Below, piece after piece: positions 2,672-48,410 of a DNA stretch of 64,000 bases. The notes beneath the pieces were generated by a model that saw only the letters and a list, made by a program, of their open reading frames with translations, ran no database searches and had not been told where the DNA came from. The translations under genes were made by a program, and so were the position numbers. Positions within the stretch are counted from its first letter, which is position 1, and the number at the start of each line of letters is the position of its first letter. This stretch comes from a virus. The stretch is taken from the IMG/VR virus record IMGVR_UViG_3300045988_084534, positions 1 through 64,000 of that record; one strand, written 5' to 3'.

Positions 2672-3769
2672 ATGTTGTATAATTTTAGCAAAGAGCAAGA
2701 AGGCACGATTTTGAATAAAGCAAAAAATCTTATTGGACAGTCAATGCGTTATTCAGAATTATGCCGTGCATTAGGAATAGTACCAGAAACAGCCGGTAAA
2801 AAGAAAGCAAGGCAACTCAGAGATTTCAATAATCTATTTGAGTACAGCGTTGAGCCAAACGGAAAACAAGTTAAATATGTTATTAATAAAGTTTATTCTG
2901 AGCCGCTTTTGCCATACTATGATAAAGATGAATGGTATATAGCCATCAAAACTCGCATTTGCGAAATATTACGAGACAATAATTATCAAGTGACATGGTT
3001 TACGAAAACGCCGTTACTGAGAAATTTAGGCGCAGTCAATGATAACTATGCCGTCATTATGAATTTGACCAAGCGGTTGCAGCTTGAAGATGTACTTGGG
3101 CGCGATATGTCAGTAGACCATGATGTATGTAGAATATTTGGGAATTTGCTGTCCGATAGAATATATGATGCTCTTAACCGAATGGCAGAGAAAGAAAAAA
3201 TCATAGCTTATTCAGATGGATATGTTGTAAGATACATAAAAGACGATATAACGCAATATCATTTAGTTCCTATGATGAGAGCTGAAGATAGTCAATTGGT
3301 AAAATCAGAACTTGGAGAATATTTACGCAACCTTGAAATAAAGGCGATAGATTATGCCATAGAGCAAAACAATCCAGATATTATAAAATACCAGCATTCT
3401 TTCAATAGAGATTTTTATAAGCACTTATATTATGATGATGTAGAGTCCTACTTAAATCAAGCATTTCTAACATCAGATGTTCAAAATTATTTATATGACA
3501 ACGGAATACATTTTGATAAAATAAAGGGGATATATTCAGTCAAATTTATTACTCCCATTCAGCGTCAAGTTGAATCTGAACTGAGATGGTTTGGTCAATC
3601 TCAGAAAATTATAAACAATGCGGCAAAAGAAAAACTACTTACAAGTAAAAGCAAAGAATTGAAAAGATATGAAGCAATGAAAAAAGGACTTATTGATATT
3701 TGTATTGATTTGTCAACTGAAACAAAATATGAAGATATGATAAAGGAGAATAACAATGCAGAAAATTAA
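2672..3769 (+). CDS. hypothetical protein (365 aa), first gene of the hairpin-bounded cassette
   Basis: ORF track 2612..3769; ATG at 2672 (MLYNFSK) follows gaaagga. No family recognised. Confidence 0.6.
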   Translation: MLYNFSKEQEGTILNKAKNLIGQSMRYSELCRALGIVPETAGKKKARQLRDFNNLFEYSVEPNGKQVKYVINKVYSEPLLPYYDKDEWYIAIKTRICEILRDNNYQVTWFTKTPLLRNLGAVNDNYAVIMNLTKRLQLEDVLGRDMSVDHDVCRIFGNLLSDRIYDALNRMAEKEKIIAYSDGYVVRYIKDDITQYHLVPMMRAEDSQLVKSELGEYLRNLEIKAIDYAIEQNNPDIIKYQHSFNRDFYKHLYYDDVESYLNQAFLTSDVQNYLYDNGIHFDKIKGIYSVKFITPIQRQVESELRWFGQSQKIINNAAKEKLLTSKSKELKRYEAMKKGLIDICIDLSTETKYEDMIKENNNAEN

Positions 3770-4388
3770 AACAAAACAAAATCTAGTTGGACAGAAATTC
3801 GGAATGTTGACTGTTATAGAAAGAGCTGACGATATTGGCGATAGAGTAGGCTGGCGTTGCAGATGTGATTGCGGAAATGTCATAGTAGTTAGAGATAATA
3901 ATTTAAAGCAAGGTTGCACAAAAAGTTGTGGGTGTTTATTAGGAAAATGGGAGCGCGGTACAGTCCGTCTCCCAAACACATATGAATTTGTAGATGATTA
4001 TGTTATTGGTCACGACCCAAAAGGAAAAGAATTTTATTTCGACAGACAAGATTATGATTTGGTGTCGCAGTATAAATGGACAATTCATCAGTACGGATAT
4101 GCAAGAACAAAAGTATGGAATGACGATGGAACATGGCAATTCATTTATATGCACCGCTTATTGATGGGATTCCCTGAAGGAATGGATATAGATCATATTA
4201 ACCACAAGCGGCACGATAATAGACGAGCCAATTTAAGAGTTGTTCCACACGGTGTAAATATGAAAAATACTACTAGAAGTCCAAGTGTTATTATCAAGAA
4301 ATATTGTGTCAAAGATCATGAAGAACTTGGATATTTTGACAACCGTAAAGAAGCAATTAAAGCATATCAAGAATATATTAGCCAATAA
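3756..4388 (+). CDS. HNH endonuclease with N-terminal Cys cluster and AP2-like C-terminus
   Basis: IYMHRLLMG..DIDHINHKRHDNRRANLRVV (HNH_3-type motif); CRCDCGN..CTKSCGC; the C-terminal GYFDNRKEAIKAYQEY resembles AP2. Confidence 0.8.
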   Translation: MQKIKTKQNLVGQKFGMLTVIERADDIGDRVGWRCRCDCGNVIVVRDNNLKQGCTKSCGCLLGKWERGTVRLPNTYEFVDDYVIGHDPKGKEFYFDRQDYDLVSQYKWTIHQYGYARTKVWNDDGTWQFIYMHRLLMGFPEGMDIDHINHKRHDNRRANLRVVPHGVNMKNTTRSPSVIIKKYCVKDHEELGYFDNRKEAIKAYQEYISQ

Positions 4389-4395
4389 TCAATAA

Positions 4396-4446
4396 AAAAT
4401 CTGCCCCAATTTCTTCCCTACATATATAGGGTCTTGGGGCAGATTT
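4396..4446. terminator. bidirectional terminator, copy 2 of the repeated hairpin
   Basis: aaaatctgccccaa / ttggggcagatttt, A tract upstream and T tract downstream, between convergent genes ending at 4388 and 4451. Confidence 0.75.
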
Positions 4447-4450
4447 TATT

Positions 4451-4726
4451 TTATTCAGTTTTTCCTATTCCATAATTGCAAAATCCATTTGGTTCAGGGT
4501 CATTCAGTCCAAACTTATTAAGACAATATGGCACATTTTCATCATTCAATCCGAAATATTCACAATCCTTACATCTCACTACCGGCACAGCATCAATAGT
4601 TGGTGCTTGGTCAACAGCGGTGTGAATAAGCCGAATTGCCGTACCGCCAGTTACGCTCCAATATTCGTCTGATAATTCATACGGTTTAGTATGCTCAAGT
4701 ACCCAATCAGCATCAATCAGTCGCAT
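4451..4726 (-). CDS. hypothetical protein (91 aa)
   Basis: ORF track; RBS aggagag. Confidence 0.65.
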   Translation of the reverse strand: MRLIDADWVLEHTKPYELSDEYWSVTGGTAIRLIHTAVDQAPTIDAVPVVRCKDCEYFGLNDENVPYCLNKFGLNDPEPNGFCNYGIGKTE

Positions 4727-4780
4727 TTTTCAACTCTCCTATTCCATGCTTTAATAATTGATGCACATCCACTCACCGTA

Positions 4781-5002
4781 TTACCAAAATGCACCTTCAT
4801 CATAATTTTCAACTCTTCTATTCCATGCGTCAATAGCATTTCTTTTTGTAACACCAAGAAAATATTCATAGCATTTTGTCTGGCATCCACAATTTTTACA
4901 AATTACAACGCAACATTTGCAACTATCCTTACCATCGCTATCTATAAATTCATTGATAACTGCTTCACCACCGCAAAACGGACATCTTTTCAACTCATCC
5001 AT
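4781..5002 (-). CDS. Lar-family restriction-alleviation-like Zn-ribbon protein
   Basis: CPFCGG ... CKNCGC ... AIDAWNRR, the pattern typical of Lar-like proteins. Confidence 0.6.
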   Translation of the reverse strand: MDELKRCPFCGGEAVINEFIDSDGKDSCKCCVVICKNCGCQTKCYEYFLGVTKRNAIDAWNRRVENYDEGAFW

Positions 5003-7629: not shown

Positions 7630-8793
7630 TTATGAATTTTCTGTGAACCAATCTTCATCAATAAAATGTACTTCTACGTTAAATTCATTACGAAGAATAT
7701 TAATTGCGTCAACCGGCTCACCGTAGAAAAATTCTTTACGAGTATTGTCTTTATTTACTCTATATTTATCAAGTCTCTTGTGCAACTGAGCTTCAAGCTC
7801 AAATACTGATTCAGAGAAAACAAGCCCGCGACATTTAAAAACAAATGGAACTGATGCCGATGATAATTCAGATAACCTAGTTAGAGGATTTAATCTTCTG
7901 GTACAACCTGCCTTGTAGATTCCGAGCATTGATTGAGTGGTAGCAATATATAACCAACCAGCGTTTGCATGAGATACGCGCCAATCAATATTTTTAATGC
8001 GCTTATCTACATTGCTCAGTTTTTCTTTTATTTTATCCTGTTCTTCCCTTGTGACGGCCTGTGCAAATAGTTTTTGAAGGTTTTTACGTTCTTCTTCAAG
8101 TCTTTGCTGTTCACGCTCAGCCTCAGCAAGCAACTGTTCTTGTTCTCTCAGTCTGCGCTTTTCTTCACGGATTCGCGCCTTTTCTTCTTTCTGTTTGACC
8201 TTGATAGCTAAGTTAATATCTAGCATATCAAGCCGCGCTTTGACATATTCAGCATTAAGCGCCAATCCGACTTTATTTGCTTTAGATTGATAAGAATTAA
8301 ATTTATTCTTAATCAATTCTTTGTTTTTTGCAATATTGCCTGTTGTCACAGATTTTTCCTTGCTGTCAATATATGCGTTACAACTGTAAACTAATCCGCG
8401 CCCATACACGTCCTGCACTTCTTTTCCGCGCCTATCTGATCCGTTTAGCGTATATCCTTGCTCAATGCGATATAGACCAGTATTCACAGCAGATTCAATT
8501 TTTCTTTGTAGCTCATATCTCTTATGCTCAAGTTCTTCTAGTGAATCCTGATAATATGGAATATTATAATCCTGCATTTCTTCAATGACATGGATTTGCC
8601 CGTTTAGAGCATCAAGGACGGATTGAGCTTCTTTTGCGGCGATTTCGGCACAATTAGCTTTATTCTGTCTAGCTGTAGTTAGGTCATCTAGTGCTTTAAT
8701 TTTTTCTTGCATTGCTTTTTGCCTAGCTTCAAGCAGAGCAATATTTTCTTCAATTGCCGCTTTCTTCTTGTTTAGCTTGAAAATCTCGAACAC
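7630..8793 (-). CDS. coiled-coil (DUF4041-like) protein with C-terminal T5orf172/MUG113 (GIY-YIG superfamily) domain
   Basis: GWLYIATT..GIYKAGCTRRLNPLTRLSEL..FELEAQLHKRL..EFF. The long E/K/Q-rich middle section looks coiled-coil. GTG at 8793 follows AAGGAGG. Confidence 0.65.
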   Translation of the reverse strand: MFEIFKLNKKKAAIEENIALLEARQKAMQEKIKALDDLTTARQNKANCAEIAAKEAQSVLDALNGQIHVIEEMQDYNIPYYQDSLEELEHKRYELQRKIESAVNTGLYRIEQGYTLNGSDRRGKEVQDVYGRGLVYSCNAYIDSKEKSVTTGNIAKNKELIKNKFNSYQSKANKVGLALNAEYVKARLDMLDINLAIKVKQKEEKARIREEKRRLREQEQLLAEAEREQQRLEEERKNLQKLFAQAVTREEQDKIKEKLSNVDKRIKNIDWRVSHANAGWLYIATTQSMLGIYKAGCTRRLNPLTRLSELSSASVPFVFKCRGLVFSESVFELEAQLHKRLDKYRVNKDNTRKEFFYGEPVDAINILRNEFNVEVHFIDEDWFTENS

Positions 8794-8980
8794 GTCTAGC
8801 CGCCTCCTTACCAAAAATCTTATCTATATGCTTATCAAAATCCAATGGATTGTTGCTCTTTGCTAAAATCTGCTTGGTGCTGGTATTATATAGCTCAAAT
8901 TGCACATTGCCGCAATCGTTGATAATCCAACCAGTATCACCATATCGGACTACAGCGTTAATTTTCTTTGTTCTTGGCAT
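8750..8980 (-). CDS. hypothetical protein (76 aa), first gene of the leftward operon
   Basis: ORF track; RBS gaggtgag; about 15 nt downstream of the predicted TSS of the 9001-9029 promoter. Confidence 0.65.
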   Translation of the reverse strand: MPRTKKINAVVRYGDTGWIINDCGNVQFELYNTSTKQILAKSNNPLDFDKHIDKIFGKEAARRVRDFQAKQEESGN

Positions 8981-9313: not shown

Positions 9314-9886
9314 ATGGAAAATAATAACATTGTATATAAGCATACGAATTTAGAGAATGGATTAGTGTACTATGGAATTACGGATAATTATGATACCAGA
9401 TGGGACAACGGCAAAGGTTATCAAGGTAATAAACAATTTTGGGATGATATTGTAAAATACGGATGGAAAAATTTTAAGCACGAAATAATTAAAAGCGGAC
9501 TTACTAGAGATGAGGCTAAATTTCTTGAGGCGCTCTTGATTCAAGAAACAAAATCATATTTGCCTGAAATTGGATATAATAAACAACTTGGCGAAAAATT
9601 AGAATATGAGGAAATTGGAGCACGAACAAGAAAAGAGAGAAAGAATAAAGCATATGGATTCAATGGGAATAAAAAAGCTGTTGTTTATAAAAACATAACA
9701 TATATGTCAATAACTGAGTTAGCAAATAAAATTGGAGACGACCCAATCGCATTGTCACAGATGCTAAGCCCTGCAAATAGTAGAAAGATGAGAGATGAAT
9801 ATGTTGCCAACGGTCTTAGATATGCAACAGAAGAAGAAGCATATGCTTGTATGAATGATAGATTCGAGCGTTATATTTTGGGCTAA
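9314..9886 (+). CDS. free-standing GIY-YIG homing endonuclease
   Basis: IVYKHTN..NGLVYYGIT..TRW..GKGY..KYGWKNF..EAKFLEALLI. Confidence 0.8.
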   Translation: MENNNIVYKHTNLENGLVYYGITDNYDTRWDNGKGYQGNKQFWDDIVKYGWKNFKHEIIKSGLTRDEAKFLEALLIQETKSYLPEIGYNKQLGEKLEYEEIGARTRKERKNKAYGFNGNKKAVVYKNITYMSITELANKIGDDPIALSQMLSPANSRKMRDEYVANGLRYATEEEAYACMNDRFERYILG

Positions 9887-9952: not shown

Positions 9953-10096
9953 TTGTGGAGCGAAATGAGCTATAACTGGTATGTATCAACAGATACAGAG
10001 CCGGAAGTATGGGATAATGAATATGAGCCAACTGAGCGTGATTGGGCGCTTTGGATATATGGTAGTTCAGAGAATGAATTAGAGGTGATTTTTTGA
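9953..10096 (+). CDS. small acidic hypothetical protein (47 aa)
   Basis: Hand translation; TTG start 10 nt after AAGGAGG. Its stop overlaps the TTG start of the next gene (TTTTGA). Confidence 0.4.
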   Translation: MWSEMSYNWYVSTDTEPEVWDNEYEPTERDWALWIYGSSENELEVIF

Positions 10097-11793
10097 GCCT
10101 ACAGACGCAAATTTATTTACATTCAGTAGATACTAGCGCATTTTATGATAACAATGAGTTGTTAATACATAATCGGCTTGTAAGACTGTATTCTTTGAGA
10201 AAGCGATTATCAGATATTGATAAACCGAAAAAGAAAAAGTCTGGTGAACAATCGGATAAAAAAATATATAAACCAAAGAAATCTGCTGAACGCAAAGGAT
10301 GGGAGAAATCGCTTGAGGGTAAACTTAGTTGGAAAGTAAAATCTGTAAATCGTTTACTCAAAAAAGAAAAGGCGCGGCTATCTGAATTGCTCGATGACGC
10401 AGTAAGCCGAAATGTAACTAGAGAATTGCGTCAAGATGCTGTGACTGATAAGACAGTTGTTAATCTATTTGAATCCGATTTAACGCGCAGCTTAGGTCTT
10501 GAACCATTCAAGTTGACCGATGAGCTATTCATCATTAACGTATTTTTCTTTCAGGTGTTTAACAATCTAGTTCATCAAGGGTTTATCTACAATGGTGAAA
10601 AATATGTGTTTCTTACAGCATCAGCAGGACAGATAAGAACGAAAAGAGCTGTATTTGTTAAAGAATCGTCGTTTAAACGCATTGAGCAAAAATTGATGTG
10701 TGGTTTGACCATAGACGAGATCAATGAACGGGGAGGCATGAATCAGAATAAATTCCTTGCCTATTTAGCGCTTATGAACTCTGCTACTGATGTTTGGCAA
10801 GATTTCGATATTGACAAATCAATAGTAGTAGACGATTGGGAAACGGCTGTTCCGGGATTGGTTGACCACATTGACGGCGTGTCATATGAGATTCGGCGCG
10901 AAATGACAGAGACGATTATTCCTCATATGGACGGATGCGGCATCATGCTCAATGAAACAACAAGAATGGTGCGTATGCCATGGATAAAGGGATTGCTTGT
11001 TACATTTCCATTTGACAAGTTTATCAAAGAGAAATGCGGCGGGGAAGCGACTGTAACAGATATTTATGGCAACGAGCATAAAATCATAGAGGAAGATATA
11101 CGGTATATATTCACAAAAAGTCAATTTAAACTATGGAAATTTTATGATTCGTGGGATTGTTATAAGGCGCGATTCAAAAATTTTGGATGTAATGCTTGTT
11201 ATTGCAATATAGAAGAATCATATATTCCAAAAAGCCGTATTAACTATCAGATGCTACAGACATTAAGTGATATGACTGATAATGAGATTGACCGCATTAT
11301 CTCTAAGACGATACAAGAGATTGATGATGTTGGTAAAGATTATCAAGTTACTATGAGATTCCTTGGCGCAACAGAGAACAATCGTTATAAATCAGCTATG
11401 CAAGAGGCGTTGTTAATATACCCTGAGCTTTTCAAGGATTCATATAATCGAGAAATTCTGAAACAGACCAAAAAGAGTCTAGTTAAGCAAGCCAAGGGTG
11501 GGCGGCTTAGAGTAAATGGAAAATATTTGTTCTTAGCGCCTGACCTATATGCGTTTTGTGAATGGTTGTTCCAAGGACAACAGAACCCACAAGGATTGCT
11601 GGCAGATGGGGATGTATATACAAACCAGTATCGAGATGAGGAAACATTGGCTTGTTTGCGTTCGCCGCATCTATATCGAGAATGGGCAATTAGGACGAAT
11701 CGGCGCAGCTTAGAGCTTGATTATTGGTTTGGCGGAACTAAGTGTATATATACTAGTTGTCATGATTTAATCAGTAGATACTTAATGTTCGAT
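10093..11793 (+). CDS. YonO/QDE-1-like single-subunit RNA polymerase, exon 1 of 3
   Basis: 567 codons ending ..CLRSPHLYREW..LISRYLMFD. The ORF stops one codon after the proposed 5' splice site. Confidence 0.6.
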
Positions 11794-12762
11794 TAGTTAG
11801 TCGCAGTCGAACCCTATGGAAACATAGGGATATAAAACGGTGTGAAGGCGTAAATGCGCCATGTCAGAAATGGCAACGGGGAAAGTGAGTGCAACCCCGT
11901 AGGAAATAGAATGAATGAATTATTAAACTATAAGGAGGTGGAAAGATGTATAAAGAAGGAATTTATTGCCATTGTGCATATCGAGTAAATGAAAATGGTG
12001 ATTGCTATACACAAAATGGCAAATTTGAGTGGGTGCATAGAAAGTGGCGATATAACAGTGATGGGTATGCTGTTGTATCAGCTTGTGGTCTAAAGTCAGA
12101 CGGTACTAAAACATTCCGCTCACTTCATGTTCATGTATTAGTTGCGCGAGAATTTGTTGATGGATGGTTTGAAGGAGCAGAAGTAAATCATAAAGATTTT
12201 AACCGTGCCAATCCTGCTTGGTGGAATCTTGAGTGGTTAAGTCATAAAGATAATATTGCTTATTCGCATAAAGCTGGTAAGTATAAAGGACGGTTTGGTG
12301 AGGACAATCCAAACTATGGCAATGACACACTACACAAGAGATACGTCGCCGAGCCTGAATTTGCCAAAGAAAAGCAGTCTCGTCCAAGAGGACAAAACGG
12401 ACGTTCTGTGAAATGCTTATTATATTGTCATCAAAATATGTGTTTTGAGCATTGGTTTGATTGTCAGCGCGACGCAGTTGATTTTCTTGTTGATTATAAT
12501 GTTGTAAAGCCAACTTGTAATAAAGAGAGTATAATTAGTAAGCTGAAACAAGAAGATGGATATAAGGGTTGGTATCTTATTCAAGATAAATAATTCATTT
12601 ATTCAAAAACCTCTATCGACTATCGAAAGGATATAAATTAACCCGTACGGGTTAATTTAGAATAACCGAGTAGAGTAGGAGATGGGTGAAATTCCCATCT
12701 CCGAAGCGCACCGAGCCTAAACGGGAAACCGCATGGCTATGATATAGTCAGTAACTCCTATG
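11794..12762 (+). mobile_element. group I intron (RNAP intron 1) carrying an HNH endonuclease gene
   Basis: P1: ttcgaT (11788-93) pairs with Gtcgaa (11806-11), with U.G at the splice site. P7: gactatc (12618-24) / gatatagtc (12741-49). Ends in G12762. Removal restores the frame. Confidence 0.8.
11946..12593 (+). CDS. intron-encoded HNH homing endonuclease
   Basis: LHVHVLVAREF..GAEVNHKDFNRANPAWWNLEWLSHKDN (HNH_3-type); RBS AAGGAGG. Confidence 0.8.
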   Translation: MYKEGIYCHCAYRVNENGDCYTQNGKFEWVHRKWRYNSDGYAVVSACGLKSDGTKTFRSLHVHVLVAREFVDGWFEGAEVNHKDFNRANPAWWNLEWLSHKDNIAYSHKAGKYKGRFGEDNPNYGNDTLHKRYVAEPEFAKEKQSRPRGQNGRSVKCLLYCHQNMCFEHWFDCQRDAVDFLVDYNVVKPTCNKESIISKLKQEDGYKGWYLIQDK

Positions 12763-13041
12763 TGCGACGGAGATAAGGCACTTGTAGTTAAAGACCGTAC
12801 TTTGTCTACAGTTGCCAAACGCAATATGCAAGATATAGTCCCTCTAGCATATGACCTCAAAAAAGCCAAGGGCGGCTTATTAAATCCAGACAGTATGTAT
12901 AATGGAATGGTCAATGCTTATACTAAGGGCAATATCGGGCCGGTTAGTAATAACATTACAAAAATATGGAATAGTGGTGAAATTACACAAGAAGAACTAG
13001 ATGTAGTGAAATGGCTTTGTTTCGAGAATAATGCTGTGATT
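12763..13041 (+). CDS. RNA polymerase, exon 2 of 3
   Basis: Begins CDGDKALVV; joined to exon 1 it gives FD|CDGD (DxDGD motif). The 3' boundary is supported by P1 of intron 2. Confidence 0.6.
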
Positions 13042-14139
13042 AAGAATCGGTCACCTTACACAGTAATGTGTATGTAAAATCTGGTGAACCTACAAATGTA
13101 GGGTGTGCGGCGTATGCCGTGCTAACAGGGAAAGCTAAAATGTTTGTTAAAAGATACTAATAGGGAGAGGAGGTGTTTATGATGAAATTTATTAACGAAC
13201 AGGCAATGAAAAATAAGATTGGCATTTATAAGATTTCCAACATTGTGTCCGGGCGGGTATATGTCGGTCAGACCAGAGAACGATTTCAAAGAAGATATTG
13301 GCTACATCAATGGGAGTTAAGGAATGGATGCCATGACAATAAATATTTGCAGAACGCTTGGAACAAATACGGAGAAGATAGCTTTATATTTGAAGTAATA
13401 GAGATTTTACCACGAGAAGAAATAGATGAACGCGAGAGATATTGGATAGCATATTATCGTGAGAATGGTGGTTGCTATTGTATTCAAGATGGCGGGCAAC
13501 CAACAAATCTTGTGAAGTATGTATCACCTGAAGTTCGTAAGAGAGTTGGTGAAATGAACCGACAACGTATGCTTGGGTCTAAGTTGAGTGAAAAGACTAA
13601 GCAGAAAATGGCTGAAATTCGTACTGGTAAGCATCCGATTAGGAAGAATGATTTAATGACCGAAGATGAGGCAAGAACTGTTAAAGAAATGCTCGTTGCT
13701 GGTTATTCTAGTGGTGACATTGTAAAAATAACAGGTGTACCATATAAGGGCATAAACAGTATTATATCAAATAATAACTATGCTGCTATTAAGGTTGATG
13801 GTTGGGACGTATATATTGCCAATAGAATGAAATCTGTAAAGCATCGACTTACAAAAGAGCAGATTCTTCAGCTTGTTGAAGATTCAAAGAACGGAATGAG
13901 CAATGCGGAGTTGGCTAAAAAATATAGCATCGGTGAATGCTCAGTGCGCCGTCATATTAGATTAAATAAATAACAAACATCATGCCAATCTTGTGCCAAG
14001 CCTCGAAAGAGGAAGGTTAAACGACTATCCTGAAAAGGAGTACAGATGGGGTGAAATTCCCCATTTGGAAGTGCCAGACCCCTTGAATATCAAGGGTGAA
14101 GATATAGTCTAAACCCCTAATAAATATCGGGAAACCGAG
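13042..14139 (+). mobile_element. group I intron (RNAP intron 2) carrying a GIY-YIG endonuclease gene
   Basis: P1: gtgatT (13036-41) / Ggtcac (13049-54). P7: gactatc (14023-29) / gatatagtc (14101-09). Terminal G14139. It shares the tggggtgaaattcccca hairpin with intron 1. An alternative in-frame boundary pair is 13038/14141. Confidence 0.75.
13179..13973 (+). CDS. intron-encoded GIY-YIG homing endonuclease with C-terminal HTH-like region
   Basis: GIYKISN..GRVYVGQT..RR..H...L..G.H.N..LQNAWNKYGE..F; RBS GAGGAGG. Confidence 0.85.
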   Translation: MMKFINEQAMKNKIGIYKISNIVSGRVYVGQTRERFQRRYWLHQWELRNGCHDNKYLQNAWNKYGEDSFIFEVIEILPREEIDERERYWIAYYRENGGCYCIQDGGQPTNLVKYVSPEVRKRVGEMNRQRMLGSKLSEKTKQKMAEIRTGKHPIRKNDLMTEDEARTVKEMLVAGYSSGDIVKITGVPYKGINSIISNNNYAAIKVDGWDVYIANRMKSVKHRLTKEQILQLVEDSKNGMSNAELAKKYSIGECSVRRHIRLNK

Positions 14140-14844
14140 GGTATATATTACGATTGTGCAAAGACGCAGTGGTTACCACAGCGTCCAAAGAGAGTTAATT
14201 CAATTATCAAGCAATATACAAAAGCTCGTGTTCCAAATTTCTTCCAATATGCCAAAGACAAAGACCCGGATACCCAAGTAGAACCTCTCAACAATTCCAC
14301 GATGAATCGTATATCGGCTAAAATCCCTGCTTCCCGCATCCGCTATAATAACAAGATTGGGAAGTTCGACTGGACTATGCTGATAAATAAATCAGTCGAT
14401 TATACCACTAGAGAAAATTCCCCAATCATTGAACGTTATAATTGGTGGATGTGGAATCAGCGTCGATTTGATTATGGAGATGACCCGCATATCAATGAGG
14501 ATGATTTATATAAATATCGTCGAATTGCACAAGATATAGTGGAATATAGCAATGAGACGCTAGATGTTGTGGTTAATAGTTTGGTGGCTTATCTATATAC
14601 GGTCAAAAAATCAAGTAATAAGAAAATGCTGTGGGCTTGTTTTGGTTGGACGATTGTAGAGAATTTAAGAATCAATACGGCGCAACTTAATCCAATCTGC
14701 CCCATTTGCGGTAAGCGGTTCAAGCCGCGCGATATATGCCAGCATTATTGCTCAGAGGAATGCTATAAGAAAGCAGATAATCAGAGGCGCACTGAATCGC
14801 GTGAAGCCCCACCTGTCCGCACGGGGGATATGTTAAAACAGTAG
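14140..14844 (+). CDS. RNA polymerase, exon 3 of 3
   Basis: The frame is open from 14113. Exon 2 plus exon 3 join in frame (..NNAVI|GIYYDCAKTQW..). C-terminal CPICG..CQHYCSEEC Zn motif. Confidence 0.55.
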   Translation, partial: GIYYDCAKTQWLPQRPKRVNSIIKQYTKARVPNFFQYAKDKDPDTQVEPLNNSTMNRISAKIPASRIRYNNKIGKFDWTMLINKSVDYTTRENSPIIERYNWWMWNQRRFDYGDDPHINEDDLYKYRRIAQDIVEYSNETLDVVVNSLVAYLYTVKKSSNKKMLWACFGWTIVENLRINTAQLNPICPICGKRFKPRDICQHYCSEECYKKADNQRRTESREAPPVRTGDMLKQ

Positions 14845-14913: not shown

Positions 14914-15333
14914 TTGCATAAAAACAAATATCCTCGGCTTGGTAAAGCTGATATGAAAAAAGAGCTGATTCGGCGCACAGGGGTTGATTCAAAGATTATT
15001 GAAACTGTGCTAACGGCATATCATGACATCATCCGCGAGACACTACAGCATGGCGTGGAGTATTCTTTGCCCGATATTGGCGTTATTACATTCCGTGACT
15101 ACCCACCAAAGCCAGCCGGTGAATATTGGAACGGTTTCCAAAAGCGGCGTATGTACTACCCTGACAGGCGGGGTTATTATCGGCTGGAATTTAAGGCTGA
15201 GAAACATATGGCAAGTGCTGTTAAAAGCGGCACACTGTATGGGAAAGGCTCAACTAAAGAGGAATGGGATGCTTGGGTGTTGGAGAATTATCCTGATAAT
15301 CCAAAGTTTATGAAGGAAGAAGAAGATGGCTGA
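14914..15333 (+). CDS. HU/IHF-family DNA-binding protein
   Basis: MKKELI..VLTAYHDIIRETLQHGVEYSLPDIGVITFRD follows the HU helix-helix-beta-arm pattern. Start uncertain (TTG 14914 or ATG 14953). Confidence 0.6.
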   Translation: MHKNKYPRLGKADMKKELIRRTGVDSKIIETVLTAYHDIIRETLQHGVEYSLPDIGVITFRDYPPKPAGEYWNGFQKRRMYYPDRRGYYRLEFKAEKHMASAVKSGTLYGKGSTKEEWDAWVLENYPDNPKFMKEEEDG

Positions 15334-15889
15334 ACATAATAAACTGAATCAGCAATTTTATGAATATGCGGCTAATCTACTTGAATCTAAACCAGAGACA
15401 GTAAAGAAATATTGGCAAGCTTGTGTTGACACCATTGTTCATATGTTGCATTTTGATGGTAGATGCCAAATGCCGGGAGTTGGAACATTCGAGTTGAAAG
15501 AAGTCCCATCTTGGACTGGAATGGCAAAAGATGATAATGGTGAGCTTGTAGAGAGAACAATCCCGGCGTGGTTCAAAATTACATATAAAAGCAATGATGA
15601 TTTCATCAATAACGTCAATGGGCGTGGCGTTACAAAGAGATACCGTAAGCGTGTCCGTGAGCGTAAGTTGACACCTAACGATCTCAAGCTAATTACTCAA
15701 GCAGAAGCAGAACGAACAGCAAAACGCACACTAAAGCAGATGCAAGATGATCGCATTGAGCAAGCAAAGCAACAGAGTTATGATGATTTTATCAATGTAA
15801 TCAACAAGAAAAAAGAAGATTATGAACGGAAAAAGAAGGAAAAGGAACAGAAATTGAATGAATCTACAGAAGATACGACAAGCAACTGA
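15326..15889 (+). CDS. second HU/IHF-like protein with Lys/Glu-rich C-terminal tail
   Basis: ..YWQACVDTIVHMLHFDGRCQMPGVGTFELKEV..; overlaps the previous gene by 8 nt. Confidence 0.5.
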   Translation: MAEHNKLNQQFYEYAANLLESKPETVKKYWQACVDTIVHMLHFDGRCQMPGVGTFELKEVPSWTGMAKDDNGELVERTIPAWFKITYKSNDDFINNVNGRGVTKRYRKRVRERKLTPNDLKLITQAEAERTAKRTLKQMQDDRIEQAKQQSYDDFINVINKKKEDYERKKKEKEQKLNESTEDTTSN

Positions 15890-18097: not shown

Positions 18098-18922
18098 ATG
18101 TTTTGCCCATATTGTGGCAAGGAAAAGCAAGATAGCCAATTCTATAAAAGTCCAATCAAAACGGGCGAATATATTAAACCATGCAAATCATGTGTAACTG
18201 AGCTATATAAGCAAGCTCTTGAATCCACTAAAGACCAAGGCGCGGCATTATGGTCAACCTGTATGCAGACCGGCATTCCTATGAGACGGGCTGAATATAC
18301 TGCTTGCCTTGATACGCTAGAAAAGGCGGCTAAAGGCAAAAAGCCTAGTCTATTTATATTGTATCACACATATTTGTCTACATCGCCTGATAAATTAACA
18401 GGTGTATGGGATAGTGATATGGAGTTGTCTAATTTCAAGGATTTGGGCGATGTGGCTAAAGGTGAAACTGATGAAGTTGCGCTTAAAGCAAGATGGCGCA
18501 AACAATGGGGCGGCGACTATGAAGATGAGGACTGTCAGTGGCTAGATGATATGTTTGATAGTTATACATCTGGTGTATTTGAAATGGACACCGCCATGGA
18601 AATGCGCTATCGTGATTTGTGTAAGCTAGAACTTGAACAATATAAAAATGGTGTAAATAAAGATACACAGTCGCAGATTAAAACGCTTATGTCTCTACTT
18701 AAACTTGATGATTTTAAGAGCAATCAGAAGTCGGACGCTGAACGAGCATTTGAGAAACGAGTTGCAATTATAGAATCAACTAGACCGGCTGAATGTGAGG
18801 AATTAAAAGAATTTCTTGATAAAGTTGGCTATGAAAAAGAAAAAGCTATGATGATGCGTAGCTTGCGAAATGCAATTTGCAACACCCGCGAATATCCTGA
18901 TGTGAGCAAGGAGGAAGCTTGA
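18098..18922 (+). CDS. possible small terminase subunit (Zn-ribbon N-terminus)
   Basis: Called by position immediately upstream of, and coupled to, the large terminase. CPYCG..CKSC. No motif-level support for function. Confidence 0.4.
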   Translation: MFCPYCGKEKQDSQFYKSPIKTGEYIKPCKSCVTELYKQALESTKDQGAALWSTCMQTGIPMRRAEYTACLDTLEKAAKGKKPSLFILYHTYLSTSPDKLTGVWDSDMELSNFKDLGDVAKGETDEVALKARWRKQWGGDYEDEDCQWLDDMFDSYTSGVFEMDTAMEMRYRDLCKLELEQYKNGVNKDTQSQIKTLMSLLKLDDFKSNQKSDAERAFEKRVAIIESTRPAECEELKEFLDKVGYEKEKAMMMRSLRNAICNTREYPDVSKEEA

Positions 18923-20763
18923 TGGGGCGCTCTCAAATGGGTGGCATTCGTAGGGCGTACATGGCTGACAAGCTGCGTGGAACTGTATCTGGCAATGAGA
19001 ATATTGACACTGAAATAGAAGAACGAATAATAGATTGGAACACATTATATCGGTATAATTGGGACATCTATACAGAATTTCACCTTGATATATCATTAAA
19101 GCCGTATCAGCGTGACGCAATACACGAGATTGGAGTTAGTGACACATTTTTTTGGAGAGCGGGTCGTGGTGGCGCAAAATCGTTTGTTACAGCTTGTGCA
19201 GCAATGTGTAAGCTCATGCTCTATCCAAACTGTTGGATCGTTGTCACTGCATCCACAGTAGACCAAGCAAATGCTATTGTTGAAGATAAAATTCAAAGAG
19301 AATTGATAAACAAACTCTCACCTTATTTGAGATACTGTTACGAAAAACAATGGCTAGTTATTACTAAACCGGGTGATGGATATAGAATTGAAAACACACT
19401 TAACAACTCTGTTCTTCGTGTATTAGCGCCTGTTGAATCTAGCCGTCGTAGTCGTTCTAATTTTACAATTTATGATGAAGCGGCAGTTATGAAAAAATCT
19501 GCAATCGACCAGATTTTTGAAGGTATGGCGTTCCCAAGACAACCTCTTTATCTCAATAATCCAAAATACGCAAACAATAAAAGATGGCTTGAAGAACCAA
19601 AGAGCATCTATCTCACATCTTCTAAATATAAGTACCAGTGGTGGTATCGTACTTGGAAAGATTGTGTAACAGGATATTATATGGATAAAAAGTCTAGGTA
19701 TAATGTATTTGCGTCTGACTTCTTTGATAACATAGAGAACGGATTAAAAACATGGGGTGATTATCGCCAAAAGAAGCGCACTATGAACGACCAAGATTTC
19801 AGAATGGAAATGTTAAATGAGGCAATAGGCGAGAATGAAGATGCGTTTTTTACAATTAAGCAATTCAAAGAGAGTCAAATTATTGAGCGGTGCTTCCGTC
19901 CACCTACTGCGTTACAGTTCTTTGCTGGTGAACAACCTGACTTCCCAGAAAAGAAAGAGGATGAGATACGGTTGGTAATCATGGATATTGCTTTTGCGAA
20001 CACCACTGGTTGCACAAAGAATGATAATACTATTATCACGCTTATGTCGGCGCATTGGAATAGTAAAAAGAATAGATTTGAACGGCACATTGATTATATA
20101 GAAGGACATAACGCATCTGATACAATCGGTGCATCTGATAGATTTAGATACCTTAAATGGGTATATGACGCAGATTATGCCGCATTTGATGGAAGAAGTG
20201 GTGGCGAGGTTATATATAACCACTTAACCGAGCCATTGCCGATGCCTAATCTTGGTGCAAGGTGGAATGGTTGTGGGTTGAGTCCTGCTGAAAAATATCA
20301 TGTTGTATCTGATGCAAAGTTGACTGATTATCATAGTCGCGTTGTTGATAAAAATGCTGTTCCGTGCTTAATCCCGGTTATAGCTACTCCTGAAATAAAT
20401 AGCCAAGGTTGGCTATCATTGCGTAAACAGCTTGAAACCAATAATATGAAATTCCTTATTTCCATGCAAGATTATCAGAATGAGCTAACAGATAGCGGTG
20501 AATATTATCAATATACTGCTGAAGAATTAGCTAATCAGCTTGAGCCGTATGGTCAAACTGATATGATGGTTATAGAGGCGGTTAATCTAAAGACGGTCAT
20601 TAAGCAGGATAAAATCAAACTAGAAGAACCGCGCACAGGCACAAAGGATAGAATTGTAACCATTATGTATGGAAACTATATTATTGATTTGATTGAGAAC
20701 GCATGGCAGCAACAGTTGCAAGAAGATGAGTTTGATATAGACTCCATTCAATTAGTATATTGA
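18922..20763 (+). CDS. terL: terminase large subunit
   Basis: Walker A-like WRAGRGGAKS, Walker B-like FTIYDEAA; 613 aa; ATG follows AAGGAGGA. Confidence 0.8.
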   Translation: MGRSQMGGIRRAYMADKLRGTVSGNENIDTEIEERIIDWNTLYRYNWDIYTEFHLDISLKPYQRDAIHEIGVSDTFFWRAGRGGAKSFVTACAAMCKLMLYPNCWIVVTASTVDQANAIVEDKIQRELINKLSPYLRYCYEKQWLVITKPGDGYRIENTLNNSVLRVLAPVESSRRSRSNFTIYDEAAVMKKSAIDQIFEGMAFPRQPLYLNNPKYANNKRWLEEPKSIYLTSSKYKYQWWYRTWKDCVTGYYMDKKSRYNVFASDFFDNIENGLKTWGDYRQKKRTMNDQDFRMEMLNEAIGENEDAFFTIKQFKESQIIERCFRPPTALQFFAGEQPDFPEKKEDEIRLVIMDIAFANTTGCTKNDNTIITLMSAHWNSKKNRFERHIDYIEGHNASDTIGASDRFRYLKWVYDADYAAFDGRSGGEVIYNHLTEPLPMPNLGARWNGCGLSPAEKYHVVSDAKLTDYHSRVVDKNAVPCLIPVIATPEINSQGWLSLRKQLETNNMKFLISMQDYQNELTDSGEYYQYTAEELANQLEPYGQTDMMVIEAVNLKTVIKQDKIKLEEPRTGTKDRIVTIMYGNYIIDLIENAWQQQLQEDEFDIDSIQLVY

Positions 20764-21000
20764 TATTTGCCTATGAAGCGGCGGCTATGTTGGTGTGTTG
20801 CCGTTGAGGTACTATTAGGGTTGTGTGAAATCCAAGTTCCAACTTAGGTTTAGTCAAAAGCCGAAAATAAAAACACTCAAAAATATAAAACGAGCAGATA
20901 GGGAGGACAAGTAGCTCAATGAACTTTGGCATACGTTAATGAAGTCCATAATCTAACTGCTCTAATATATAAACAATAAAACAAAGAAAGGAGGTTGAAG

Positions 21001-33438: not shown

Positions 33439-33730
33439 ATGGCAAAAACAAACAGTAATTACTCCATCATTGCTGATGTTGAGCTTGAGCTAAAAAATGC
33501 GCAAAAACAATTAAACGAGTTTAGGAAAGATAATAAATTAAATCTTGACTTAAATGTTAAAGGTTCTAAAAGTTTATCTGACGCAGATGGTAAAGTAAAA
33601 AAATTAGATGATTCTACCAGAGACCTAGTTTTTACATATCAGCAATTTAGACAGGTGCTAGATTCTGTTGTTGATGTTACTGGCAAAATGGTGGAACAAG
33701 TCAAGACGCTGGATGCGGCACAGACAGAGT
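33439..33730 (+). CDS. tail tape measure protein, exon 1 of 5
   Basis: Coiled-coil N-terminus. The ORF terminates 8 codons after the proposed splice site. Confidence 0.7.
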
Positions 33731-34997
33731 TAATCTTTAGCTCGCTTTCGTTGTAAAACGATTGAAAAATAACCCATTGAATTGCTGGAAACCCCTTAGA
33801 GCTGTCATGCTAAAGCGGAGAGATGAAATACGCTCAAACGTAAATGCTTGAAAAGTTGATAGATTGGGCAATCAGCAGCTAAGACCCGAATAGGGTAAAG
33901 TTCAACGACTATCCCGTAAGGGAGTACACTACAAGCGATTGGTAGTGGAAGTGGTGGGTATCCTAATAGGATAAAGATATAGTCTGGTCTTATAAGAAAT
34001 TATAAGCGCGTAAGCGAATGTAGGAGTAGCGTCCTTTTAATGTAATGATAAGACAAATATTCATAAGGAGGTGAATATGTGTATAGAAGAAAAATAGATT
34101 ATAATTTAGTAAAATCTGAGTTTGATGAGCGTGGATACGAATTATTATCTACAGAATATGTGAATAATGTTACGAAATTGCAATATGTTTGCCCAAAACA
34201 CAGAAACAAAGGTATTTTAGAAACTACATTTGCTAATTTTACAAAGGGAAAAGGATGCCCATATTGTGCAAATAGAGTAAAAAAGACACAAGAAGAATAT
34301 GAGGCAGAGTTAGCAATAAAAAAGCCAACAATTAAAGTAATTGGGAAATATATAAATCTTAAAACAAAGATAGAACATGAATGTGTTGTCTGTGGCTATC
34401 GTTGGGATGTATTGCCAGATAATATGCTACATATGTCAAACGGTTGTCCTAAATGCGGGAAAAGAGCACCATTGAATCAAAATGAGTTAATAAATAGGAT
34501 TGCTAAAATAGATGATTCTATTGAGGTTGTTGGAGAATATTATAATACTGCAACGAAAATGTCTTTTAGGTGTAAGAAATGTGGAAATGTTTGGGAGGCT
34601 AAACCAAATAATATATTGAATGGCAAAGGATGTCCAAATTGCAAATCGTCTAAAGGAGAAAAAGAGGTTGCACGCATTCTTGATGAACTCGATGTATTGT
34701 ATAAACCACAATTTAAGTTTCAGGATTGTAAAGATGAATTGCCACTTCCATTTGACTTTTATCTTCCAGATTATAATATTTGCATAGAATATGATGGTGG
34801 ACAACATTATAAGCCATGCACATTCGGTGGTATTTCTAAAGAGCAAGCAAGAGTGAATTTTGAGCTTGCTAAGAAACATGATAGAATCAAAGATGCGTAT
34901 TGCAAACAACACAACATAAAATTAGTAAGAATCCCGTATTGGGAATATAAAAATATAAGAAATATATTATCATTACATTTACATTAAACACAAAACG
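33731..34997 (+). mobile_element. group I intron (TMP intron 1) with PD-(D/E)XK-type endonuclease gene
   Basis: P1: gagT (33727-30) / Gctc (33740-43). P7: gactatc (33907-13) / gatatagtc (33976-84). Ends in G34997. The join gives ..AAQTEFKKVSDLSG.., which is in frame. Confidence 0.8.
34079..34987 (+). CDS. intron-encoded endonuclease: three Zn-ribbon modules plus C-terminal Vsr/PD-(D/E)XK-like nuclease
   Basis: Repeated C..H/CPxC modules (CPKH..CPYC, CVVCG..CPKCG, CKKCG..CPNC). C-terminal FDFYLP..ICIEYDGGQHY..DRIKDAYC..NIKLVRIPY. Confidence 0.65.
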   Translation: MYRRKIDYNLVKSEFDERGYELLSTEYVNNVTKLQYVCPKHRNKGILETTFANFTKGKGCPYCANRVKKTQEEYEAELAIKKPTIKVIGKYINLKTKIEHECVVCGYRWDVLPDNMLHMSNGCPKCGKRAPLNQNELINRIAKIDDSIEVVGEYYNTATKMSFRCKKCGNVWEAKPNNILNGKGCPNCKSSKGEKEVARILDELDVLYKPQFKFQDCKDELPLPFDFYLPDYNICIEYDGGQHYKPCTFGGISKEQARVNFELAKKHDRIKDAYCKQHNIKLVRIPYWEYKNIRNILSLHLH

Positions 34998-35784: not shown

Positions 35785-35997
35785 TCAGAAATGATTTCTG
35801 CTGCATCGCAGTTCAGAAAATCAGGTTTCAATGATGAAGATGCGGCGACATTAGCCAAGGTTGCGGCGCAGTATCAGAACGTAGCCGACACAGCGGTATC
35901 AGCAGAAGATGCAGCAGCTTCTATTACTTCTCAGATTCGTGCATTTGGTGAAGATGCGGCATTTGCTACTACTGTAATTGATGCTTACAACGAGGTT
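35785..35997 (+). CDS. tail tape measure protein, exon 3 of 5
   Basis: SEMISAASQFRKSGFNDEDAATLAKV..AYNEV; 213 nt, in frame. Confidence 0.7.
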
Positions 35998-37233
35998 TAA
36001 TTTTGTAGACCTCTATAAACAGGGTGAATTGCTGGAAACCTAAACTCATATAGAGCATGGTAATCAGCAGCCAAGATTGAGATGAAATGCTCAATAAGGT
36101 TCAGAGACTATCGAAAGCATAATAAATAAAAGTGGGAATATACCACTTGAAGTGAGTAGAGTACACAGTAGTGCTAACTGTGGAAGTGCCCTGCCCTCAT
36201 ATTATATGAGGTGATGATATAGTCCATTCCTATGAGAAATCATAGGCGAGAACTCTATAATAGGTATAATATTTGAAAGAAAAGAAGTTTTGTGTATATG
36301 TGCATATGTTTCCAAATGGGAAAAGATACATTGGTATAACCAGCAAGCGCCCAAATGACAGATGGGAGAGAGGTAGTGGGTATCGTGATAGCTTACCAAT
36401 GCGTAATGCAATAAATAAATATGGATGGGATAATATAGAGCACATAATACTATTTGATGGATTGACACAAGAAGAGGCTTGCAAAAAGGAAGTTGAACTT
36501 ATAGAGAAATATAAAACAAACATTCATAAATACGGCAATCAATATGGATACAACTTAACTGATGGAGGCGAAGGCACTACTGGGCATAAGGTGTCAGAAG
36601 AAAGAAAAGAAATTATGCGCCAACTAAAATTGGGTAAAGTTGGAAAGGATTGTCCAAATTCTCGCCCGATTGTTTGTGATGGGGTTGAGTATGAGAGTTT
36701 AACTGACTTTAAGAATAAGAATAATCATCCAAAAGGCAATATCGCAGCTTGGTTAAATGGTACAGTAGGAATGCCAGAATATTGGTATAATAAACGACTA
36801 CATTATAAAGATTTGGGATTCGATGTTGTTAAATTAGCAGACAATAAAAACCGTGCTAAAAAAGTTGTTGCAGATGGAATTATGTTTGATACGTTAGAAG
36901 ATTGTGCTAATTATTTTGGAGTAGATGCACCAAGGATATGTAATTATCTAAATGGTAAAAATGCTACACCAGACAGAATCATAAATGCAGGACTTAGATA
37001 TGAAGATGAAGATGTGCATGAATTTAAAAGGCAAACTAAAAGAAGTAAGAATAAAATAAAATGTGAAATAGATGGCATTCAATTTAATACACAAGCAGAC
37101 TTAGCGAAATATATAAAAGAAAATAAGGCGACTTTATGGGCTTGGTTTGCTGGGAAAAATCCAATGCCAGAGAAATATGTAAAGAGAGGAATAAAAATTA
37201 TAGAGTAATCTCGGCTCAACTTAGCAAATTGAG
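35998..37233 (+). mobile_element. group I intron (TMP intron 3) with GIY-YIG endonuclease gene
   Basis: P1: gaggtT (35992-97) / Gacctc (36008-13). P7: gactatc (36106-12) / gatatagtc (36216-24). Ends in G37233. Confidence 0.8.
36273..37208 (+). CDS. intron-encoded GIY-YIG homing endonuclease
   Basis: FCVYVHMFPNGKRYIGITS..RW..GSGY..NAINKYGW..EEACKKEVELI; TTG start with a weak RBS. Confidence 0.8.
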   Translation: MKEKKFCVYVHMFPNGKRYIGITSKRPNDRWERGSGYRDSLPMRNAINKYGWDNIEHIILFDGLTQEEACKKEVELIEKYKTNIHKYGNQYGYNLTDGGEGTTGHKVSEERKEIMRQLKLGKVGKDCPNSRPIVCDGVEYESLTDFKNKNNHPKGNIAAWLNGTVGMPEYWYNKRLHYKDLGFDVVKLADNKNRAKKVVADGIMFDTLEDCANYFGVDAPRICNYLNGKNATPDRIINAGLRYEDEDVHEFKRQTKRSKNKIKCEIDGIQFNTQADLAKYIKENKATLWAWFAGKNPMPEKYVKRGIKIIE

Positions 37234-48203: not shown

Positions 48204-48410
48204 ATGACAAATATTGAATTGGCAAAAAAGCACGAAGATGTAGCTAAGAAATATAAGACAGTATATATGTGGGGCTGTTTTGGTCATCCAGTGACCGAGG
48301 CGATTATCAGAGAAAAGGCGGCGCAATATCCTAGTTGGTATACAGCGGCAAAGCAGAGAGAACTAAGAAAGCTGGTCGGCAAGGGATATTTTGCATTTGA
48401 CTGTGTAAAT
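48204..48410 (+). CDS. NlpC/P60-like cell-wall endopeptidase (endolysin), exon 1 of 2 (3' boundary +/-15 nt)
   Basis: ..YMWGCFG..GYFAFDCVN contains the catalytic-Cys FDC motif. The ORF stops 8 codons later. Confidence 0.6.

Follow-up and report, generated by a model that had tools for sequence, protein, structure and literature searches.

The SPbeta prophage encodes YonO, an RNA polymerase (RNAP) that transcribes the SPbeta late operon and requires an Asp triad for its activity (Forrest et al. 2017, PMC5467207). Here, we analysed a related gene at positions 10093-14844 of a 64,000-nt stretch of DNA from an uncultured phage, which comprises positions 1-64,000 of the IMG/VR record IMGVR_UViG_3300045988_084534 and is called the window in the following. 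The gene shares with yonO the RSPH...DxDGD motifs, a C-terminal zinc ribbon, and neighbouring genes of the HU-like yonN and yonJ type followed by late genes. We consider it very likely that this is a YonO-type RNAP gene in an SPbeta-like gene order and that two mobile IA2-like group I introns interrupt it. The yonO gene of SPbeta itself is, unlike the window gene, uninterrupted, and the window phage is only distantly related to SPbeta.

YonO-type enzymes are two-barrel polymerases, in which the R-x-P and DxDGD positions are among eight invariant residues (PMC2919709). QDE-1 and RDR2 belong to the same Pfam family as the window product, are its best structural matches and share the R-x-P ... 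DxDGD spacing (QDE-1 R962, P964, D1007-D1011). However, they are only 11-14% identical to it and are eukaryotic RNA-dependent enzymes, whereas YonO-type enzymes are DNA-dependent. Apart from YonO, to our knowledge, no single-chain relative of the multisubunit cellular RNA polymerases has been characterised.

Mobile introns have been described in other phage polymerase genes. An intron resides in a multisubunit RNAP gene of the jumbo phage 201phi2-1 (gp273/274; PMC2919709), and the intron of PhiPA3 gp210 targets the PhiKZ RNAP, its endonuclease being reported to interfere with the competing phage (PMC11620839). As in the window, a mobile intron with an endonuclease occupies a phage two-barrel RNAP gene, but the jumbo-phage enzymes are multisubunit, whereas the window enzyme is single-chain and hit twice, once inside the Mg-binding motif. 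The phage IA2 introns of T4 td (I-TevI), Twort orf142, SPO1 DNA polymerase (I-HmuI) and SPbeta bnrdE/F resemble those of the window in the P7.1/P7.2 extension of the core and the endonuclease gene in a peripheral loop, as well as in their insertion at invariant codons of essential enzymes and the presence of several introns per gene. The window introns differ from them by a host gene new to the literature, by extra hairpins between P3 and P4, by scores on the Rfam family RF00028 below the cut-off and, for intron 2, by the missing terminal G.

In the phages phi3T, SPR, Goe11, Goe14, BUCT083 and SPbetaL3-L7, yonO is split at the same helix as by intron 2 of the window. The group I intron found there is homologous, has the same 3' module (..ATCGGGAAACCGAGGGTAT..) and in some cases carries a GIY-YIG gene. 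Its insertion lies 4 nt downstream of that of window intron 2, after the Asp codon (TID|FAKT); it ends in the canonical G and is the only intron of the gene. The resulting pieces are annotated in GenBank as two hypothetical or 'yonO_1/yonO_2' proteins. We found no description of yonO introns in the searchable literature, and the papers within reach of the search do not call the splits introns.

Results

A YonO-type polymerase gene in three exons

Three open reading frame (ORF) fragments on the plus strand (10093-11796, 12760-13077 and 14302-14844) are separated by two inserts, each with one endonuclease-like ORF. Excision of 11794-12762 and 13042-14139, the intervals given in an earlier note on this DNA, creates a single open frame of 894 aa with the joins ..RYLMFD|CDGDKALVV and ..NNAVI|GIYYDCAKT. 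In tblastn, the fused product is 42.3% identical to SPBc2 yonO over 96% of the query and 45.7% identical to Clostridium phage D-1873 over 99%, and 25 records span at least 80% of it. The pairwise alignment to SPbeta YonO places DCDGD on DNDGD and LRSPHLYRE on LRSPHLFRE, with no gap at the first join. The product also matches phrog_8308 from end to end (residues 3-874 to positions 2-845 of 847, E 3.6e-242) and Pfam RdRP (PF05183) with 35.7 bits (cut-off 23.8). The agreement with phrog_8308 and SPbeta YonO greatly exceeds chance expectation.

We aligned 55 YonO-family sequences. R523, S524, P525, H526, D567, D569, G570 and D571 are invariant in this alignment, and so are I660, D665, K668, T669 and four C-terminal cysteines. 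R523 and P525 precede the Asp triad D567/D569/D571 by about 45 residues. Since a sequence search of the Protein Data Bank (PDB) with the product gave no polymerase match, merely a weak zinc-ribbon match, a fold search was needed. The AlphaFold model (pLDDT 83, pTM 0.76) best matched RDR2 (E 1.3e-19), QDE-1 (E 4e-15, TM ~0.46-0.52) and Thermus phage P74 gp62 (E 1.7e-6) among solved structures, and phage 'RNA-dependent RNA polymerase' models in a viral structure library. These matches of the whole model point to a predicted two-barrel (double-psi beta-barrel) fold.

None of the three exons contains a frameshift, and each is colinear with intact homologs. The codon differences in exon 3 among five intron-bearing copies (the window, L004, L226, L228 and L245) are mostly synonymous, e.g., 46 synonymous versus 10 non-synonymous. 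All exons are under purifying selection, and the gene encodes a true homolog of SPbeta YonO, a YonO/QDE-1-type single-subunit two-barrel RNAP. The earlier note had named such a gene with two introns and had suggested profile and structure comparisons of the spliced product and a check of DCDGD conservation. The YonO homology, the profile and fold matches, the intron-less alleles and the covariation described below all agree with that assignment. The likeness of CLRSPHLYREW to the QDE-1-type motif, likewise pointed out there, is matched by the invariance of R523-S-P-H526.

A Lys-rich insert of ~35-38 residues near the N-terminus (KPKKKKSGEQSDKKIYKPKKSAERKGWEKSLEGK; window 10222-10326, residues 44-78) is predicted to be disordered (pLDDT <50), has low model confidence over residues 46-75 and is absent from SPbeta YonO and the homologs P0001-P0003.

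Intron 1 inside the metal-binding motif

The coordinates of the features are collected in Table 1. The first insert, between D567 and C568, had been placed exactly by the earlier note: intron-less alleles, P1, P10 and the terminal G agree on both ends. The empty site is found in L004 and in the P0004 cluster, where it reads ..LMFDVDGDK... With intron 1 missing from L004 and intron 2 from L005, both insertions are defined to the nucleotide. A bipartite guide, GTCGCA|GTCGAA, would pair with both exons (P10 and P1), and guanosine-initiated self-splicing would join TTCGAT^TGCGAC exactly. L225, a 60%-identical relative, has both window introns, intron 1 being present there without the HNH ORF. Its P10 covaries with the Cys codon, both partners being changed (GTCACA with TGTGAC).

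The structure counted for covariation was assigned by hand (P1, P10, P2, P3, an extra hairpin, P4, P6, P6a, P7, two hairpins of the P7.1/P7.2 region and P8) and compared across five copies, namely the window, L005, L230, L244 and the ORF-less L225. In these, 98.8% of cells were paired and 25 of 83 pairs had changed on both sides, a result that 0 of 500 shuffles equalled. When the partners were slid, pairing fell to 31-43%. The slid control is the more meaningful one, because there are only five sequences and the structure was drawn from them. Other introns, with RF00028 scores of 87-97 bits, share the P7-P7.2 module of intron 1 (GACTATCGAAAGGATA...GAATAACCRAGTAGAGTAGG). The ORF in the P6a loop of intron 1 matches phrog_59 (E 4.9e-19).

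As many as 90 of the 120 best database clusters matching exons 2 and 3 start with 'MCDGD', where the M comes from the ATG in the intron tail and the C from the Cys codon after it. One of these lineages, just 56% identical, carries the same intron with the HNH gene. By this signature, intron 1 is widespread in metagenomic YonO genes; none of 40 GenBank phage hits is split at the intron-1 site.

Table 1. Features of the interrupted polymerase gene and its downstream neighbours in the window
Feature	Position	Strand	Remarks
Exon 1	10093..11793	+	567 aa, TTG start; first barrel region; R-S-P-H 11659-11670; D567 11791-11793; colinear with SPbeta YonO and P0001-P0003
Intron 1, IA2-like group I (very likely)	11794..12762	+	969 nt; between D567 and C568 of DCDGD; terminal G12762
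Intron 1 P1	11788-93/11806-11	+	6 bp, ttcgat/gtcgaa, U11793.G11806
Intron 1 P10	11800-05/12763-68	+	6 bp; guide GTCGCA pairs perfectly with exon 2 start TGCGAC
Intron 1 P2	11812-18/11823-29		
Intron 1 P3	11838-44/12707-13		
Intron 1 P4	11876-81/11895-900		
Intron 1 P6	11901-03/12610-12		
Intron 1 P6a	11909-22/12591-604		14 bp, closes HNH loop
Intron 1 P7	12618-23/12744-49		
Intron 1 P7.2 hairpin	about 12678-12702		
Intron 1 P8	12714-17/12735-38		
HNH homing-endonuclease gene (predicted)	11946..12593	+	215 aa; in P6a loop; AGGAGG 8 nt ahead of ATG
Exon 2	12763..13040	+	93 codons; starts C-D-G-D (12763-12774), completes DCDGD; ends in Ile660 codon
Intron 2, IA2-like group I (very likely)	13041..14150 (equivalently 13042-14151)	+	1110 nt inserted relative to intron-less alleles
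Intron 2 P1	13036-40/13050-54		
Intron 2 P10	13045-49/14151-55		5 bp, AATCG with CGATT
Intron 2 P2	13057-62/13067-72		
Intron 2 P3	13080-86/14072-78		
Intron 2 P4	13125-30/13989-94		
Intron 2 P5a	13140-49/13971-80		perfect 10 bp, closes GIY-YIG loop
Intron 2 P6	13995-97/14015-17		
Intron 2 P7	14023-28/14104-09		
Intron 2 P7.2	about 14044-14068		
Intron 2 P8	14080-86/14090-96		
Intron 2 P9 region	14113-14141		
GIY-YIG homing-endonuclease gene (predicted)	13173..13973	+	I-TevI-like, NUMOD3 + HTH; in P5 loop, closed by P5a
Exon 3	14151..14844	+	230 codons + stop, plus third base of Ile if junction is 14150|14151
Two HU-like (Bac_DNA_binding) genes	14914..15889	+	directly downstream; place of yonN beside yonO in SPbeta

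Intron 2 and the shared ribozyme core

Intron 2 lies one helix downstream, just before the invariant D-x-A-K-T with which exon 3 begins; exon 3 ends with a CxxC...CxxxC zinc ribbon. The ORF in the P5 loop matches Pfam GIY-YIG (32.2 bits, cut-off 22.6) and phrog_314 (E 8.6e-29), and its likely start is the ATG at 13179, preceded by GGAGG at 13168-72. The two endonuclease types, HNH in intron 1 and GIY-YIG in intron 2, are those that the earlier note had read from the sequence. It had also described a U.G-containing P1 in each intron (gtgatt/ggtcac at 13036-41/13049-54 in intron 2) and the elements gactatc and gatatagtc, all of which we found in both inserts. A hairpin, (t)gggtgaaattccc(a), is indeed common to both, but it is not the P8-like element it had been taken for: it follows the 5' strand of P7, precedes the 3' strand of P3 and therefore corresponds to P7.2 of an IA2-type intron, the true P8 being elsewhere (Table 1). 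Comparison of copies supports the core pairings, as P3 occurs in seven different 7-bp versions across both intron types, and both P7 and P8 have changed in a compensatory manner in phi3T, L225 and L168.

A 19-mer of the P9 region of intron 2, ATCGGGAAACCGAGGGTAT (window 14113-14146), is found exactly in at least 200 viral and genome contigs of very diverse taxa (loci L007-L224). It marks a very widespread intron family, of which RF00028 gives only partial recognition. In megablast, intron 3' core sequence of the polymerase region matched Listeria, Staphylococcus and Enterococcus myophage genomes.

The guide GGTCAC of intron 2 allows a U.G pair at U13040 (with G13050) and at U13041 (with G13049); the guide AGTCAC of the more distant copies L225 and L168 places the cut after GTGAT. 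In L005, the empty site reads GCT GTT ATA|GAT TGC, and P0121 also lacks intron 2. By comparison with L005, the inserted DNA has 1110 nt and ends with ..TATATATTA(C). The P10 pairing AATCG/CGATT aligns the exons at this boundary as GTGAT^CGATT, encoding Val-Ile-Asp in a colinear product. The alignments suggest that the junction is probably at 14150|14151 and the product 890 aa long. The earlier coordinates 13042-14139 are then right at the 5' end (within 1 nt) but probably wrong at the 3' end, since 14139 leaves 12 nt (GIYY) seen in no uninterrupted homolog. The fusion of three fragments in an open frame stands, but its length of about 894 aa probably does not.

Several observations weigh against the reading of two group I introns. 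At the gathering threshold (50 bits for RF00028), Rfam gave no hit within 10093-14844 when the whole window was searched, and RF00028 did not hit intron 1 or its ORF-less L225 copy even in E-value mode. It aligned the 3' half of intron 2 only (32.6 bits, E 7e-6), under the cut-off. The HNH ORF scores 23.2 bits on Pfam HNH_3, 1.6 below the cut-off of 24.8. Both introns contain two extra hairpins between P3 and P4 (11847-11875 and 13089-13124) that we could not match to any standard element. At the comparative boundary, the last base of intron 2 is A14150 (or C14151), not G. A database search for a spliced-transcript protein spanning junction 2 gave only intron-less alleles and fragments. As to the Rfam scores, the phi3T intron reaches only 19.7 bits on RF00028; the family models this subtype poorly, and comparative analysis was therefore relied on. 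The extra hairpins consist of a 5-bp stem with an AAAU loop followed by GUGU-hairpin-GCUAAC. The first stem is fully compensatory among the copies, and we know of no counterpart to it in the standard group I scheme.

The 3' splice site of intron 2

That a group I intron ends in G is treated as a universal rule. In L225, L168, L041, the phi3T-type introns and 175 of 224 members of the intron family, a G is reached 3-4 bases after the conserved ..GGGTAT. The variant without terminal G occurs in five contigs from different samples (the window, L004, L226, L228 and L245), and this clade has TA where L225 and L168 have GG. No change is seen in P7 or in its G-binding pair. Because exon 3 is under purifying selection, in-frame removal of intron 2 must occur and the gene must be alive.

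Splicing at an upstream G has, in our judgement, somewhat less than an even chance of being correct. In this scenario, U13041 would be combined with G14139 (adding GIYY) or U13040 with G14141 (adding IYY), so that 9-12 nt of the intron tail become coding. These are the only in-frame pairs that offer both a 5' U.G and a terminal G and spare the invariant Asp, and, by what is generally known of group I chemistry, poor binding to the unchanged G-binding pair is to be expected of a terminal base other than G. However, none of 54 uninterrupted homologs has an insertion at this place, and neither have the 94-96% identical intron-less alleles; P0001 (89% identity) likewise reads AVI-D-x-AKT. The added residues would immediately precede the invariant D665, where a predicted helix ends and the confidence of the model falls to 59. 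Moreover, G14139-41 are part of a P9 stem kept in at least 200 related introns, and P10 would have 1-3 bp at the upstream-G sites versus 5 bp at the colinear site. Two further ends were rejected: G14152 causes a frameshift, and U13040 with G14156 removes the invariant Asp-Cys.

A bolder proposal, which we regard as unlikely, is that the clade lost the terminal G and ligates precisely at GTGAT^CGATT, the 3' site being set by the newly acquired 5-bp P10 instead of guanosine binding. If true, this ligation would be an exception to the terminal-G rule of group I introns. The missing terminal G is the one feature of the locus that could prove surprising, and the clade provides a natural test of how strictly the choice of the 3' splice site needs a G.

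Readings without splicing

We consider it very improbable that the polymerase is made from separate unspliced polypeptides (the products of exon 1, of 'MCDGDK...' and of exon 3) that assemble like the split beta/beta' genes of jumbo phages. An ATG stands exactly at the end of intron 1, the prevalence of MCDGD starts among protein clusters would fit such a start, and gene callers list separate ORFs, such as yonO_1 and yonO_2 in Goe14. However, no Shine-Dalgarno sequence precedes this ATG (upstream sequence ..agtaactcctATG), which is part of the conserved intron 3' tail, and such a split would cut through the Asp triad. In exon 3, the first in-frame start, M714, lies downstream of the invariant D-x-A-K-T. 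The covarying ribozyme core is kept even where the endonuclease gene is absent.

Still less credible, if only slightly so, is a decaying pseudogene wrecked by endonuclease cassettes, with no functional splicing. The stops at the ends of exons 1 and 2 and an intron 2 without canonical terminal G would suit decay, but the exons are colinear with intact homologs and free of frameshifts, synonymous changes far exceed non-synonymous ones in exon 3 of five contigs, all invariant catalytic residues are kept, and the same arrangement occurs in several divergent phages. Inteins are ruled out, as both inserts start with in-frame stops and contain ribozyme cores, and so are group II introns, for which neither the structure nor a reverse-transcriptase gene is present.

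Discussion

With two group I introns as the preferred reading, the pre-mRNA would presumably be made by the host polymerase, and two splicing events would lead to the active enzyme. Both would be required because intron 1 separates D567 from the C-D-G-D of the metal-binding triad. The two endonucleases may cut intron-less yonO alleles of co-infecting relatives, whose repair would copy the introns in. The distinct exon-3 tract QRPKRVNSI, common to alleles bearing intron 2, looks like co-conversion. By analogy with PhiPA3 and PhiKZ, the endonucleases could also act against co-infecting relatives. Self-splicing, endonuclease activity and a role in late transcription are what we would expect of this locus, and two ribozyme reactions would be a precondition of late transcription in such phages.

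The earlier note had called a phage polymerase gene requiring two splicing events unusual, which was an overstatement. Interrupted yonO genes, split near the intron-2 site, already stand unremarked in GenBank in many SPbeta-like phages, the DxDGD intron heads at least 90 metagenomic protein clusters, and introns in phage two-barrel RNAP genes are on record. The kind of element is well known and the kind of system is not new; what is new is the host gene and the insertion sites. Automated gene annotation reports these genes as separate 'hypothetical' fragments; in phage and metagenome catalogues, YonO-type polymerases are therefore undercounted and listed at the wrong size.

At least four insertion points occur in the yonO family: N219|K220, D|xDGD, within the Ile codon before D-x-AKT, and after that Asp. 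The first is seen in the YonO homolog of L170 (reverse strand, about 3560-4810), where a member of the intron-2 family lies between the invariant N219 and K220 (..GGINTN|KFLAYLSLNNSAT..). L246 carries a different intron at the phi3T-type site after the Asp codon. The yonO gene is thus a recurrent target of mobile introns at invariant sites.

Genomic neighbourhood and other introns of the window

The HU-like genes downstream of the polymerase gene are followed by a YonJ-like gene, the terminase and late/structural genes, giving the order yonO-HU-yonJ as in SPbeta. By analogy, the polymerase may serve the late operon that follows its gene. Immediately upstream lies a free-standing GIY-YIG gene of 190 aa (9314-9886), in whose place L004 has a NUMOD3 ORF. 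A 394-aa protein with T5orf172/MUG113 domains is encoded divergently upstream on the minus strand (7630-8814); in the relatives L005 and L006 it is a SNIPE-like nuclease.

In a megablast search of the polymerase region against a phage collection, only ~55 nt of intron core were matched, and there is therefore no close relative among phage isolates. The large terminase subunit (TerL) of the window, encoded at 18919-20763, is 40% identical to those of Enterocloster phages and ~28% identical to the SPbeta group. Directly after its gene lies a 'drum' RNA motif (RF02958) at 20768-20881, with 53.5 bits (cut-off 43).

Three more group I introns exceed the Rfam cut-off, at 33721-34006 (98.6 bits), 35988-36246 (82.7) and 48397-48694 (93.9), so that the window holds at least five introns together with the two in the polymerase gene. 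An endonuclease-like ORF comes after each of them: 34079-34987 (phrog_559 HNH, CapR/DUF4379 zinc fingers) after the first, 36273-37208 (GIY-YIG with the I-TevI DNA-binding domain) after the second and 48746-50056, which has four DUF4379 repeats, after the third. A tape-measure gene, whose fragment at 37288-37740 matches tape-measure PHROGs, appears to be interrupted by the first two introns. In the Enterocloster phages OP172753-OP172757, which have the closest terminases, the terminase gene is itself divided into three parts, with an annotated 'intron-associated endonuclease' in between, and intron load seems to characterise this phage group as a whole.

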